A DNA stretch of 64,000 nucleotides from Escherichia coli (lineage in GTDB: Bacteria; Pseudomonadota; Gammaproteobacteria; Enterobacterales; Enterobacteriaceae). Shown piece by piece: positions 43,213 to 49,664 of the stretch (positions within the stretch are counted from its first letter, which is position 1; each line of letters starts with the position of its first letter). The notes beneath the pieces are model-generated. The model made no database searches, was not told the DNA's origin, and was given only the letters and a program-made list of their open reading frames with translations. The position numbers and the translations under genes are program-made. The stretch is from the NCBI RefSeq assembly GCF_003991155.1, contig NZ_CP031293.1. One strand, 5' to 3'.

Positions 43213-43685
43213 ACCTCAATCTCTCTGACCATTCCGCCCGCTTCTTTGAATTTTGCAATCAGGCTGTCAGCCTTATGCTCGAACTGACCATAACCAGCGC
43301 CCGGAAGTGAAGCCCAGATATTGCTGCAACGGTCGATAGCCTGACGAATATCACCGCGATCAATCATCGGTAAAGCGCCACGCTCTTTAATCTGTTGCAG
43401 TGCCACAGCGTCCTGGCTTTTCGGAGAGAAGTCTTTCAGGCCAAGCTGCTTGCGGTAAGCAACCCACCAGCGTGAAAGAAGTTGATAACGGCCTGCAGCT
43501 GTTGATTTGAGTTTCGGGTTTAGCGTGACAAGTTTGCGAGGGTGATCGGAGTAATCAGTGAAGAGTTCTCCACCGACAATAACGTCATAACCGTGGTTAC
43601 GTGTCGGTTGTCGCCCGTTATCCGTTCCCTCTGACCATGCCACCATATCAAGGAAAGCTTTACGCTGGGAATTTAGTACCTGCAT
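43209..43685 (-). CDS. R: Endolysin R (lambda-type lytic transglycosylase)
   Basis: 158-aa ORF ...[38 protein letters not shown]... Confidence 0.9.
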
Positions 43686-43688
43686 AAA

Positions 43689-44015
43689 TTACTCCTTAGA
43701 GCCACCAAACTTGTTACCGATTACTCTCATTGCAGCCCCACGAATAGCATCAACACCGATCAGCCCCACCCCACCACCAATGGCAACAGATAGTGATTTA
43801 GGCCATCCGACATACTCAAGAGCGGATGCAAAAGTCAGCGTCAGAGCGCCACAGAGTAGAATTTCGAGTGTTTTTCGCTTCCAGCCGCCACCACCGCCAA
43901 AATAGGCAATACGTAAACCAGCCATAACAATCGACATAATCACTGCGCCCAGCGGTGTGTCTCCACGCCACCAGCTCTGGACCAACTCCAGCCATGTATT
44001 TGGGTTATGAGGCAT
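43689..44015 (-). CDS. Putative holin, not lambda S type
   Basis: 108-aa ORF with about three hydrophobic segments, immediately upstream of R. Confidence 0.6.
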   Translation of the reverse strand: MPHNPNTWLELVQSWWRGDTPLGAVIMSIVMAGLRIAYFGGGGGWKRKTLEILLCGALTLTFASALEYVGWPKSLSVAIGGGVGLIGVDAIRGAAMRVIGNKFGGSKE

Positions 44016-44160
44016 TTGTAGTTATCTCTCACCTCGCTGATACAGCAGGTGCAAATTGAGGAAACATCATGTACCGCAAATCAGAAGCGGAAACGTCAAA
44101 GAAGCCGAGTCAATGGATAACTGCGGGATAGGCTAGGACCAAGGAATCCCCAGACCCAGA

Positions 44161-44189
44161 AACGACAAAACCCGCTCGATGGCGGGTTT
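44161..44189 (-). terminator. Candidate tR'-like terminator upstream of the lysis genes
   Basis: Hairpin AAACCCGC-TCGATG-GCGGGTTT; on the minus strand it is followed by a U-rich tract. Confidence 0.4.
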
Positions 44190-44306
44190 AAGCTGTGTGG
44201 CGAAGTGAGCACACTTAACAGATTACGATATTTTTTGCGTACGCGTTAGTGTTTTGATAGAATTTTCAGCCACATAAAAATTCATTCTTATAATTCGGGA
44301 TATATA

Positions 44307-45170
44307 ATGGATATAACTTGTTTAGAATGTGGCAATGTTCTTGACGACCCAACTGTAGCTTGCGATAAATGCGGTGCCACGCCTCATGTTGTAGTGCTGG
44401 GCAAACAATCGTACTTTCCTATTGGTGCTGTAACAGCAAATCTTGAAAAAAATGATTCAAGAGCATTTGATTATCGATTAGGTGAAGTTTGGGATCTAAA
44501 AAATGAAGTCACATCTGAATTCATAACCAGAATTGAGAAAAAATTTAGCCGAAAAAACAAATTTCATAACTTCCTAGACTCAGATCACAACCCTTCATCC
44601 ATTCCTACGATCCTAAAAAAATACATTAATAAGAATAATGAATTCATTGATTTATCTAGAGCTATAATAGAGAAGCTTAAACATAATGCTAATAACGAAT
44701 CGAGAGTTGCCCAACTTCAGGGGGGGAGCGTTGTTTTCATCCACTATAAGTCTACCGAACCAGAGGATTTGGGGAAACTTCTAATCGTAATGGTTGATAA
44801 ACAAAGCGCCTATGACTTTGATTCGGATAAGTTGACCCCAACAAGATTAAATCCAATTAATACCGATGCCTTACGGCAGGCTGCGATGTTCGATTTAACT
44901 TTATTCGAAGCCAGTTATCCAGAAAACAAGGGTGACTCATATGTACATTTCTTGCAAGGTAAATCTAAAAGCGATTTTTTCAAAGACTCATTAGGTTGCC
45001 GACATGATTCGGACAATAAAAGAAGCATTCAGCAATTATTCAGTGCTATAGATATTTTTGCTAGTAAAAACTCACTCGGTCGTGTACTGCGTGATACTAT
45101 TGACAATGAAGTTAAATCCTTACTGGAAAAAAATCAAAAGATAAACACGGAAATAAGTCCGTTAAGATAG
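44307..45170 (+). CDS. Zn-ribbon + NdpA/YejK-like nucleoid-associated-protein-family protein, truncated by frameshift at an A7 tract
   Basis: 287-aa ORF; N-terminal CLECGN-x10-CDKCG; FSRKNKFHNF, GGSVVFIHYK and YVHFLQGKSKSDFFKDSLG align by eye to YejK; AT-rich. Confidence 0.7.
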   Translation: MDITCLECGNVLDDPTVACDKCGATPHVVVLGKQSYFPIGAVTANLEKNDSRAFDYRLGEVWDLKNEVTSEFITRIEKKFSRKNKFHNFLDSDHNPSSIPTILKKYINKNNEFIDLSRAIIEKLKHNANNESRVAQLQGGSVVFIHYKSTEPEDLGKLLIVMVDKQSAYDFDSDKLTPTRLNPINTDALRQAAMFDLTLFEASYPENKGDSYVHFLQGKSKSDFFKDSLGCRHDSDNKRSIQQLFSAIDIFASKNSLGRVLRDTIDNEVKSLLEKNQKINTEISPLR

Positions 45171-45481
45171 AGGATATTTCAAAAATAATTGACTCATGCC
45201 TGACTGATTCACACAAATGTAAGGGAACGTTTGTCGATTTTGTTAATCTTAATGGTTTCCAGATTGACCCTCAATTTGAACCAACTCCTAAAGCAGCTGA
45301 AAGCGCGCTTACAATTGAAGTGGCAGATAACGACAATAATTTTAAGTTGAAAATAATGCGTGGAGCTATTGGAGACGAAAAGTCAAATAAGCCTGTAATT
45401 CTCACTGACAACAAATGCGAAATTGTGATAAAATTGAGTCAGGCAAATTATGATGAACTCAAAAGATATAGAGACAGCTAA
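45116..45481 (+). other. Open -1 frame continuing the upstream gene (YejK-like C-terminal region)
   Basis: Frame open from 45116 to TAA at 45479-45481, 2 nt before the next ATG; needs a -1 shift at AAAAAAA 45127-45133. Confidence 0.55.
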
Positions 45482-45483
45482 TA

Positions 45484-46698
45484 ATGACAATTGCTGATGA
45501 CTTATCAAGATTAGCGCAGATTATTAACGGAGCCTCAAGCAGAGTTGAGGGCTACTACACTGTCATAAGTCTTGAAGAAAGCATTGTTATTGTAAATAGT
45601 TCTGAAATAATTAGACTGTTACAATCTATAGGTTATAAAAAGGCAACAACCTGCATCGAAAATAATGAAATTTGGCTAGATCGCCAAGCTTCATCTTGGG
45701 ATGATGCTATAATTTATGAGAATGTTGAGTCTTTTTGGTCTAGAGTAAACACCCAAAACGCTCTTCCGAAAAATTATATCATCGGAACGCCGTTAATACT
45801 CCCTACTTCTAAGAATGAAAGCATCGAAAAAATCCATATTTTCTTTATGTGGAAAGATATCCTTTCATTAATTGCTGATCATCATAACAGTGACTGCTCT
45901 GTCTTATTTTTCACCAATGAAGACAAAAGTTATACAGTCGAACTCACGCATTTTTTACAATATAGCGAGATTAATCGCTTATCGAACTCGTCTCTTAAAT
46001 ATGAAATTATAAAGGAGCTTCTCGACACAATAAAAATCAATGATTTACACAAAAGCGAGCGCAAGCTCGTTATACGCTCAGCCATAAACGAAGTATTTAA
46101 AGCAAATGGTACGTTCAATTTCTTTGACTTGCTTAACTCTACTGAACTCGTCAGGAAAAAATATGATGAACTATATGAGATTTACACAAAGAGGTTTTCT
46201 GTAAATAAAATTCTTAACGAACTCGATGAGAAAAATCTTGAGTTCACGAGTAAAATTAACGAATTCATATCATCTAATCAGACAAAAGCATTGACTATTC
46301 CCGGTGCATTAATAGCAGCTGGTGGCTTAGTGAAGGCTAATGAAACAACCGAAGCAATATTGATTATCGCAGGACTTTGGATGATAAAAAAAGTCAATTA
46401 CATTTCTATTGAGATATTCAATGAAACATTCGACAACTTACGTTCTCGAGTGGAGTCCGCTTTCGATAAGTATTTAAAGTTTGAAGAAAATAAAGAAATC
46501 AAAGATAATGCAGATAGTATTAAGAGTAGCATTACAGGTTTGATTGATAAAGCTAAAAAAAGGATGAGAACTGTTAAATATCTCGCATCAGCCATGTTTT
46601 ATGGAGGCCTTATTTACGTTGGATATAAACAGTTCCCAGTCTTTTTTGAAAAATCGGCAGTAAATCTATTTTATTTTTTATGCCATACTATAAGCTAA
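45484..46698 (+). CDS. Hypothetical membrane-anchored protein, two C-terminal TM segments
   Basis: 404-aa AT-rich ORF; hydrophobic LTIPGALIAAGGLV...ILIIAGLWMI and YLASAMFYGGLIYVGY; no Walker or nuclease motifs seen. Confidence 0.7.
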   Translation: MTIADDLSRLAQIINGASSRVEGYYTVISLEESIVIVNSSEIIRLLQSIGYKKATTCIENNEIWLDRQASSWDDAIIYENVESFWSRVNTQNALPKNYIIGTPLILPTSKNESIEKIHIFFMWKDILSLIADHHNSDCSVLFFTNEDKSYTVELTHFLQYSEINRLSNSSLKYEIIKELLDTIKINDLHKSERKLVIRSAINEVFKANGTFNFFDLLNSTELVRKKYDELYEIYTKRFSVNKILNELDEKNLEFTSKINEFISSNQTKALTIPGALIAAGGLVKANETTEAILIIAGLWMIKKVNYISIEIFNETFDNLRSRVESAFDKYLKFEENKEIKDNADSIKSSITGLIDKAKKRMRTVKYLASAMFYGGLIYVGYKQFPVFFEKSAVNLFYFLCHTIS

Positions 46699-47034
46699 CA
46701 TTGCTAAACAGCCGTCAACAAACCCCATTGCAGTTTGCAGTTCCTTCCTAATTGTGCCATCAGAGCATTTTCTCTTCTTCGCAATAGTGCGTAATGAGAT
46801 ACCGATAACAAAGTGGGCGATGATGAGCTCATATTCCTCTGGTTTATACCTTCTCAACCGAGCCACACAACTGTCTATCATGATGCCTTCGTCATCATCA
46901 CACTGAATCCGTGACTTTTTGCCATGAGGTAAAAGTCCCTTGAAACCAGCCGCTATCGGCTGCCAGTCCACTCCGCTATTGTCTGAAGCAGCCCAAGCTC
47001 CCCAACGATCCATTACTTCATACATATCACGCAT
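46678..47034 (-). CDS. quuD: Late-gene antiterminator Q (DLP12 QuuD-like)
   Basis: Start MRDMYEVMDRWGAWAASDNSGVDWQPIAAGFKGLLP...; 3' end overlaps the convergent 45484-46698 gene. Confidence 0.8.
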   Translation of the reverse strand: MRDMYEVMDRWGAWAASDNSGVDWQPIAAGFKGLLPHGKKSRIQCDDDEGIMIDSCVARLRRYKPEEYELIIAHFVIGISLRTIAKKRKCSDGTIRKELQTAMGFVDGCLAMLAYSMA

Positions 47035-47255
47035 CAACTTTCTCCACAAAATCAGGCCAGAACGCCAATTACAAGCAAAAATCAACAAAACAGTATTAGT
47101 TGATTGTTATCTCTGACTTCATACTCCTGCTCCTGTCAGGGTTTTGGCGTAATTCTTCAGTATTCGGTAATCGGTCAAAACAGAACCGGGGAAACGATAT
47201 AAGCGCAGACGCCCCCAGCGGTGGCGAAGAAATTCTGCCATATTAAACTCAAACA

Positions 47256-47618
47256 TCATTCATTCCCCATTTCGGTGATGGTCAGTTCCAGCCTCCCACC
47301 TTTGGTAACAGGCATCTTCACAACGCGGTAATCAACGACCTGAGCATCATCCAGCCAGAAACCTGCTTTAGTGAGTGCGTCAAAAGCGGCTTTTTGCAGA
47401 TTATCCAGGTCACGGCGACGGCGATCCGGCATGTGGCACTCAATGCGGATTTTCACAGGCATAGCTAGGCCGATATCCAGCATTGCGTTTTTAATGATTC
47501 GGGCGACGTTATCGCGGTATGCCTGCCCCTCTGCGCTGACGTGCGTGCGCCCGCGATTATGGCGGTAATAGCGATTATTGCTCGGAGGCCAGGGTAATGT
47601 GATACTGTAGGTATTCAC
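47256..47618 (-). CDS. rusA: RusA Holliday-junction resolvase
   Basis: 120-aa [34 protein letters not shown]... Confidence 0.9.
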
Positions 47619-48719: not shown

Positions 48720-49664
48720 TTATGGTTTATTTTCTAGCTCTGATTTTTTGAAAGCTTCTATCAGACGATTAGCATCTTCTGTACCACCAGGAAGCACGTT
48801 TGATTTTTTAAGAATATACGGTGGGAACTTTGTGGTTAAATATTCATGCTTAAACCATCTACGAAACTCTGACAATGCAGAATCAGGATAGGCATTAATG
48901 ATCTGAGGATTGGAACTTGCCTGAAGAAAATCTTCAGGGTAATAATGCTCACAGTCTACTCTTTCTCCAAATTCTGTTGCTAACCCCTTTGCTTTCCAGT
49001 GACGCGCCCAGCAAGAACCAACACTGCCATCAGGTACGGTATGCTGATTAATCGCTAATCCAGCATTGATGAGATCTACCATCATACCTGCAATTTCATT
49101 AAATATAATGAAATACCCATCAGGTATGGTTCCCTTATCTTTTAATAAAGATACTCTGTCATGGTAATGCCTCCACGGGTCCTCCGGTTGATATTTTAGC
49201 GCCTCGTATATAAATGTCTTGAGGCCTTTTTTAGCAAGCTCTCTGTAAGATCTAATTGCAGTCTCACTTTCTGCTTGTTTTGCTTCAAAGGCATAGTATT
49301 CAAGTATAGCCATGCATACAACATCTGGATAAGCATGGTACTCAACACCATTTCGAATTATTGGTATATAAAGTTTTTCATCTGTAAAACCTTCATTAAG
49401 AAGATATGTACCAATAAAAGTCATTCTTCCTTTTTTGAAAATACCGTTCTCAACAGATTGAGCCCACTCATCGGTAATTTCCTTGATTCGCAAACGCTGA
49501 ACACCACAAACATTTGCCAACCCATTCTGAGTAAGGTACGGAATTCCGTTATCGAGTACCCCCATTTCTATACCGTTAATGACAGCCTCTTGCTTAACAT
49601 CTAAGTCTAAAGGTATGGATCTGAGGGAGGTAGTTCTCTGTTGTGCCATTTTTGATCCTATCAA
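48720..49664 (-). CDS. Hypothetical protein with possible Bro-N/KilA-N-like N-terminus (nin-region moron)
   Basis: 314-aa AT-rich ORF; N-terminal GVLDNGIPYLTQNGLANVCGV loosely resembles Bro-N; C-terminal region unassigned. Confidence 0.55.
   Translation of the reverse strand: MIGSKMAQQRTTSLRSIPLDLDVKQEAVINGIEMGVLDNGIPYLTQNGLANVCGVQRLRIKEITDEWAQSVENGIFKKGRMTFIGTYLLNEGFTDEKLYIPIIRNGVEYHAYPDVVCMAILEYYAFEAKQAESETAIRSYRELAKKGLKTFIYEALKYQPEDPWRHYHDRVSLLKDKGTIPDGYFIIFNEIAGMMVDLINAGLAINQHTVPDGSVGSCWARHWKAKGLATEFGERVDCEHYYPEDFLQASSNPQIINAYPDSALSEFRRWFKHEYLTTKFPPYILKKSNVLPGGTEDANRLIEAFKKSELENKP

Follow-up and report, generated by a model that had tools for sequence, protein, structure and literature searches.

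The closest described counterparts of the locus analysed here are the late control regions of phage 21 and of DLP12. In the phage 21 record, which is annotated from experimental papers, the -35 element of the late promoter pR' lies 7 nt after Q, the Q-binding element (QBE) lies in the spacer, a pause element (TAAGCTG) covers +2 to +8, and the terminator ends at +50. Phage lambda (pR'-qut-6S RNA-tR') and the Stx phages (pR'/StxS) follow the same logic that we propose below, in which the promoter gives only a short, terminated transcript until Q is loaded at a pause close to the promoter, although lambda Q belongs to an unrelated family, PF03589. For the DLP12 lysis operon, control by a Q-type antiterminator and a regulatory region directly upstream of essD are mentioned in those passages of PMC7918800 that cite its references 27 and 28. 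The pause of phage 82 is at +25, from an extended -10-like element followed by GCC (PMC5001585). A preprint on Q21 places Q82 in a family of its own that shows no sequence similarity to Q21, and the Pfam number printed there for Q82 duplicates that of Q21.

We analyzed a 64,000-nt stretch of Escherichia coli DNA (contig NZ_CP031293.1), referred to here as the window, in which the region 44016-44306 belongs to a lambdoid prophage. The prophage region was the same in strain LWY24 (100% identity) and nearly so in at least 75 other complete genomes (~99.97%). Its minus-strand genes run in the order ybcN, ninE, ybcO, rusA, ylcG, Q, a 2.66-kb interruption, holin, endolysin, and spanins. The Q gene (46678-47034, minus strand; 118 aa from the ATG) is labelled 'antiterminator Q family protein' in RefSeq and matched PF06530 over residues 1-115 in a Pfam search (E=2.7e-47), and we assigned it to clade A of the Q21/QuuD family of late antiterminators. 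The match to the Q21 structures 6p18 and 6jnx was weak (E=1.3e-3, residues 8-86), and residues 39-104 gave ECF sigma-R4-like matches in profile searches. The first late gene, a lambda-family holin S (43689-44015, minus strand; PF05106, E=5.7e-25, in agreement with the RefSeq annotation), begins 2662 nt from the Q stop. An earlier sequence-only reading of this stretch had placed Q at these positions and the holin 2.7 kb away, with a plus-strand cassette in between, and the open reading frames and the measured gap confirm that layout.

The interruption is a two-gene, plus-strand cassette (44307-46698) with a GC content of 0.31-0.39, versus ~0.5 in the flanks. The first gene, DS-1A (44307-45481), is a YejK/NA37-type (PF04245) nucleoid-associated anti-phage gene that scored 451 bits against NF053868 (DS1_1_antiphage), and the second, DS-1B (45484-46698; 404 aa), is an anti-phage gene that scored 375 bits against NF053869 (DS1_2_antiphage). 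When scored on an intact copy, both adjacent, same-strand genes passed the NCBIfam equivalog cutoffs of 330 bits for DS1_1 and 315 bits for DS1_2, and on these profile matches we identify the cassette as the DS-1 anti-phage system. PADLOC (2023) contained no model matching it. DS-1 comes from the DefensePredictor study, where the YejK nucleoid-associated domain is among the newly validated defence domains (PMC13092281), and we found no discussion of its placement between Q and pR' in the literature searched. In the window DS-1A is frameshifted: alignment with the intact copy of strain PEC403 showed an A7 run at 45127-45133 in place of the A8 of intact copies, and the gene is split into two open reading frames (44307-45170 and 45320-45481). 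The window and LWY24 agree at every base, while the alignments of the other top-listed genomes are 3702 rather than 3701 bases long. The last 21 nt of DS-1B (46678-46698) overlap the 3' end of Q, tail to tail on opposite strands. No plus-strand terminator-like site was found after DS-1B in the terminator scan, so the DS-1B transcript may run antisense into Q, an arrangement that recalls paQ. The locus has also received insertion sequences elsewhere; in NZ_OZ547033.1 and NZ_CP097170.1 there is an IS1 in the nucleoid-associated gene or an IS3 splitting Q. A 314-aa open reading frame upstream of the nin region (48720-49664, minus strand), which RefSeq calls 'BstA C-terminal domain-containing protein', adds a second prophage-borne defence gene to the element that holds DS-1.

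Immediately before the holin leader, we found a candidate late control module of ~105 bp on the minus strand (44262-44159). An alignment of five phages gave the order of its elements as A-tract, TAAC, palindrome, A5-6, about 5 variable nt, TAnnnT, GTTAAGAGTGGTTACTTCGCCACACAGCTT, hairpin, and T-run. The leader itself, from the terminator to the holin start codon (44016-44158, minus strand), is 92-95% identical to the pre-holin region of SfII and SfIV. Two exact-pattern scans of IMG/VR returned over 150 loci with the module, and the phages and prophages that carry it include DLP12, 434B, PA-2, SfII, SfIV, and Stx phages; about 80 phage records besides 434B and PA-2 carry it. Eight matches of the 16-mer TGTTAAGAGTGGTTAC in coding regions were left out as chance. 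In RefSeq the module was unannotated in all 240 E. coli genomes matched, and a full-text literature search with module oligomers returned nothing relevant. The counts given below refer to 117 loci, from IMG/VR and reference phages, with both a full-length Q and a module.

The downstream end of the module is a hairpin followed by a U-rich tail (44189-44159, minus strand), and it was the top terminator-like site in the scan. The stem (44189-44168) closes a 6-nt loop with 8 pairs, 5 of them G-C, and the tail behind it reads TTTTGTCGTTTC and ends at 44159; RNA folding gave a dG of -17.6 and a z of -2.8. This agrees with the minus-strand hairpin and U-tract terminator that the first reading had put at 44161-44189. 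A 19-mer across the 5' arm recurred in at least 120 IMG/VR contigs. Relatives carried at least 10 different stem sequences at the same position, each followed by a T-run, and the more divergent ones had a different hairpin there. The recurrence of the 19-mer, together with same-position hairpins with a T-run in divergent relatives, argues that the hairpin did not arise by chance, and a tR'-like intrinsic terminator between the putative promoter and the first late gene is well supported.

The promoter-like part was placed with a conservation profile of 57 unique modules. Its upstream portion consists of an A-tract (44255-44252) and a -35-like hexamer, CTAACG (44249-44244), that matches TTGACA weakly (3/6), making the -35 assignment a putative one; homology to SfII stops at about 44255. 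The 8-bp palindrome GCGTACGC (44244-44237), our candidate QBE, comes next and is followed by A6 (44236-44231) and by the hexamer TAATCT (44225-44220), the candidate pR' -10. At this -10-like position, nAnnnT was present in 57/57 unique modules and TAnnnT in 50, the other bases being variable, and a TTnACG-like hexamer, preceded by an A-tract, lay 16-18 nt upstream with a clade-dependent spacer. Placing the -10 in the A-tract or in the distal TATCGT (44230-44225) was rejected; neither is nAnnnT-conserved across clades or has a -35 partner. We counted against the pR' assignment that a consensus promoter scan of 44016-44306 found no minus-strand sigma70-like site of 9/12 or better. The assignment is based on the fact that this is the sole promoter-like arrangement that stays with the terminator in every context. 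From these positions, transcription is predicted to start at about 44215 (+/- 2) and to yield a terminated RNA of ~50 nt. Both GCGTACGC and the module core TGTTAAG(A/T)GTG occur only once within the 64-kb window.

Between the -10-like hexamer and the hairpin lies a near-invariant initial transcribed region (44219-44190, minus strand; consensus GTTAAGAGTGGTTACTTCGCCACACAGCTT, window GTTAAGtGTGcTcACTTCGCCACACAGCTT). By analogy with phage 21 it is expected to hold a sigma-dependent pause element, for which the candidates are a second conserved nAnnnT (AAGWGT; AAGTGT at 44216-44211 in the window) and a TGGTTAC motif. The two nAnnnT hexamers are only 9 nt apart, which we counted against a confident placement of the pause. 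We also compared GGTTACTTCGC of the module with lambda +8 to +18 (GGTTAATTCGC) for the pause register, and discarded the comparison because 232 of 2000 shuffles reached the same match; this lambda-like stretch is absent from the window's own variant. An Rfam search of 43500-47500 (E<=1) found no family for a short leader RNA. In the PA-2 record (locus L007, J02580.1), a CRP site predicted in the 1980s overlies the transcribed region of the module at 1730-1750 (a GTGG...TCACAC dyad) and may simply be the leader inverted repeat.

The palindromes in these modules are 8-10 bp long and fall into eight classes: GCGTACGC (that of the window), TACGTACGTA (that of DLP12), GCGGTCCGC, TACGATCGTA, TACAATCGTA, GGAATTCC, TGTTATAACA, and TTCGTTACGAA. 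Each was associated with its own class of Q helix-turn-helix, with 0 exceptions in 117 loci. While residues 1-60 of Q are 62% identical among clades, residues 61-100 are only 35-40% identical, and closely related Qs that read SDGYIGK, SDTCIGK, and SDCWVGR around the start of the putative recognition helix pair with the palindrome centres CGTACG, CGATCG, and CAATCG, respectively. We found no description of palindromic Q-site classes in the literature searched. The exceptionless class pairing makes the palindrome the likely QBE. A competing explanation accepts the promoter and the terminator as real but takes the palindrome as the operator of some other dimeric regulator, or as a recombination or junction sequence, and has Q read something else, such as the A/T-rich spacer or the transcribed region. 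It draws on the observation that Q21 binds a direct repeat rather than a palindrome, and on the correlative nature of the association between Q and palindrome in loci that are related by descent; the pairing could partly reflect linkage rather than function. We nevertheless consider this explanation unlikely. The pairing of all eight classes has persisted despite repeated replacement of the cargo between the two partners and free reassortment of sequences downstream, where the leader beyond the terminator moves freely among palindrome classes. The small changes in the putative recognition helix (GY, TC, CW) track the palindrome centres, and the palindrome sits in the -35/-10 spacer, where the annotated QBE of phage 21 lies, and at the place of the lambda QBE as well. 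Furthermore, the rest of the module hardly varies between Q clades whose helix-turn-helix regions are just 35-40% identical, and thus cannot encode specificity.

In its transcribed region (44219-44205, minus strand; TGTTAAGtGTGcTcAC), the module of the window departs from the near-invariant consensus at three sites, and its activity could therefore be altered. The same changes lengthen a possible leader hairpin, GUGUGC/GCCACAC. Taken with the frameshift in DS-1A and with the insertion sequences at the locus in some related genomes, the three substitutions might suggest that the module is a decayed remnant of a late control region that no longer functions in this prophage. We regard this as quite improbable, given that 46 complete E. 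coli genomes carry this variant module unchanged, that the Q, holin, endolysin, spanin, and terminase open reading frames are all intact, and that the palindrome, the -10-like hexamer, and the terminator are intact too.

We then considered where the module lies relative to Q and to whatever separates Q from the late genes. Q was upstream of the module and on the same strand in 117/117 loci. The distance from the Q stop to the palindrome was 0-40 nt in 21 loci and at least 500 nt in the other 96 (about 0.86-3 kb, with a maximum of 2971 nt), and none of the 117 loci had an intermediate distance. In the compact loci, the module was the sole thing between Q and the late genes and its palindrome was contiguous with the terminator, which leaves no room there for another promoter. 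The 96 distant loci mostly carried opposite-strand cargo between Q and the module, and at least 13 types of cargo were seen. In the window, SfII, SfIV, Stx2a_1447, DLP12, 434B, and PA-2, the module directly precedes the first late gene. The window shares the module with SfII, SfIV, Stx2a_1447, and DLP12 despite differing late genes and unrelated cargos, which are DS-1 in the window, the PADLOC candidate system PDC-M53 (A and B) in SfII (L002, 2702-4316), unnamed genes in SfIV, two unnamed opposite-strand genes upstream of methylase-tRNA-stx2 late genes in Stx2a_1447 (L004, 2401-3964), and the porin gene nmpC in DLP12. On the late-gene side of the cargo, the terminator was always accompanied by both the promoter-like part and the candidate palindrome, and comparison of loci that carry different cargos found no conserved sequence adjoining the Q stop.

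The sequence-only reading had left two arrangements, with pR' either directly after Q, so that late transcription would cross the cassette antisense, or with pR'/qut inside 44016-44306 and divergent from the cassette promoter. The constant position of the module beside the late genes favours the second. Because the module is on the late-gene side of the cassette, late transcription would begin downstream of the cassette and never cross it, contrary to the antisense proposal; any antisense transcription of the cassette would come only from early pR transcripts that read through past Q. That pR'/qut is directly 3' of Q within the end of DS-1B, with the hairpin as tR' only and late transcripts antisense across the cassette, is suggested by lambda and phage 21, where pR' immediately follows Q, and by a weak minus-strand promoter-like site in the cassette (46408-46381, 9/12), but is very unlikely given that the 21-nt overlap with DS-1B leaves no intergenic space after Q, that cargos sharing a Q clade show no sequence relationship in the stretch 3' of Q, that the palindrome that tracks the Q class stays beside the terminator and not beside Q, that in compact loci it lies just after the Q stop and contiguous with the terminator, and that sigma would no longer be retained for a sigma-dependent pause 2.4 kb away from the promoter.

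Together, the membership of Q in the same Pfam family as Q21 and the compact-locus position, which matches that of pR' in phage 21, lead us to read the block as pR'-QBE-pause-tR' of a QuuD-like branch. It is quite probable that 44262-44159 (minus strand) is the complete late-gene control module of this phage. We infer from these comparisons its promoter activity, its start and pause positions, the binding of Q to the palindrome, termination, and antitermination. By analogy with phage 21, host RNA polymerase would start at pR' and, without Q, halt at the hairpin after ~50 nt of RNA. Q, made from the early operon 2.4 kb away, would act in trans, binding the palindrome and loading onto the paused polymerase, and the Q-loaded polymerase would then pass the terminator and transcribe S-R-Rz and the structural genes. 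The DS-1 cassette would have been inserted exactly between the Q stop and the module, in the opposite orientation and with its promoter back-to-back with pR'.

The cassette has a candidate promoter of its own on the plus strand, found by the consensus scan: TTGATA (44254-44259) and AAAAAT (44276-44281), 16 nt apart, upstream of an SD-like GGGA (44297-44300) and the ATG at 44307, both read directly from the sequence. The TATAAT-like element that had been noted near 44288 is present (44289-44294, plus strand), but the window holds 22 copies of TATAAT versus 25 expected; we dropped it as promoter evidence, and TTGATA/AAAAAT is the better-spaced candidate. The suspicion that the late control region is squeezed against the cassette promoter proved correct, the -35-like hexamers of pR' (44249-44244, minus strand) and of the cassette (44254-44259, plus strand) being 4 bp apart.

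Similar junctions were seen with other cargos. In the other non-porin cargos, the start codon was 31-132 nt from the palindrome, and a T-tract with TTGnnn abutted the module; these short distances and abutting hexamers indicate that back-to-back candidate promoters are the rule at the site between Q and the module. At least eight unrelated cargos had the T-tract and TTGnnn, a candidate -35, in the same position. Among the variants shared on the cargo strand, all equally far from the palindrome, were TTGATA, TTGTAA, TTGTAT, and TTGAAG (L002, L004, L018, L033, L064, L099, and the window at 44252-44259). Either the junction supplies a ready-made -35 for any insert or the convergence was repeated. 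At the other end, the last 10-15 residues of Q varied with the type of cargo (L002, L004, L018, L033, and others), which places the cargo junction inside the end of the Q coding sequence. Most other cargos also had a G+C-rich hairpin with A/T-run flanks right after the Q stop (L018, L037, L076, L118, L094, L051, L057, L033), likely a bidirectional terminator that insulates Q from the cargo; the DS-1 insertion is without it.

The cargo -35 lies only 4-10 bp from the -35 and QBE of pR'. A wider reading, which we put forward as tentative and rather unlikely, is that the gap between the Q stop and the palindrome serves specifically to dock defence cargo in the opposite orientation and brings a switch with it, in which Q at the palindrome and polymerase paused at pR' could, at so short a distance, occlude the cargo promoter in late development, while constant firing of pR' would set the cargo level in the lysogen; it adds that the at least eight pairs of palindrome and helix-turn-helix form a simple, previously undescribed recognition code, with this branch of the Q21 family binding as symmetric dimers. 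If the switch were real, a defence that protects the host would be silenced at the very stage at which the phage's replication might suffer from it.

For a large group of E. coli and Shigella prophages, sequence alone now suffices to predict the late promoter, Q site, and terminator with an accuracy of a few bases, which is relevant to forecasts of the timing of lysis genes, Stx genes, and other late cargo. A defence cargo between Q and pR' is outside the late transcription unit and should therefore be expressed from its own promoter in the lysogen, in contrast to stx-type cargo located after tR'. The pairing of palindrome and Q helix-turn-helix predicts Q specificity and cross-talk between co-resident prophages, and the tight back-to-back promoters offer a concrete test case for the coupling of late development and defence expression.

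Compared with phage 21, the window has a Q of the same family (PF06530, with a sigma-R4-like helix-turn-helix) and a similarly compact module, with the Q site, a candidate in the window, in the -35/-10 spacer and the terminator end ~50 nt from the start, itself a prediction in the window. The two Q proteins are distant, however (E about 1e-3), and that of the window is shorter (118 versus 162 aa). The candidate QBE is an 8-bp palindrome in the window and two direct 8-bp repeats in phage 21, no DNA similarity to pR'21 was detectable in the module, and the phage 21 module abuts Q, whereas 2.4 kb of cargo intervenes in the window. A late region of the phage 82 type was rejected, since Q is a PF06530 protein that matches the Q21 structures, and direct reading of the module showed no TGnTAnnnT-GCC pattern; the comparison with phage 82 that had been proposed is therefore not applicable. 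The comparison with quuD-nmpC-essD of DLP12 was the right lead, as DLP12 carries the same module. DLP12, and likewise 434B and the lc locus of PA-2, have the layout of the window, with Q, an opposite-strand moron, the module, and the lysis genes in that order, and their transcribed region and terminator are almost identical to those of the window. They differ in that DLP12 has a clade B Q with TACGTACGTA while the window has clade A with GCGTACGC, that the DLP12-type cargo is a porin gene ~310-370 nt from the module while the window has a defence system there, with 62 nt from its start codon to the palindrome, and that the DLP12-type holin is S21-type while that of the window is lambda-type. 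Lambda gives a terminated RNA of 194 nt, and that of Stx phages reaches up to at least 173 nt before processing into a 74-nt small RNA, versus a predicted ~50 nt in the window. Stx phages also carry morons such as stx within the interval from Q to S, but there the cargo is downstream of pR'-tR', on the late strand, and Q-dependent, whereas the cargo of the window lies on the opposite strand, upstream of pR', and is expected not to depend on Q. In the literature searched, the strict use by cargo of the gap between the Q stop and the QBE was not described. Related phages commonly show this layout, which does not amount to a new type of regulation; the palindrome classes and the strict cargo gap are modest extensions of a known mechanism rather than a new one.
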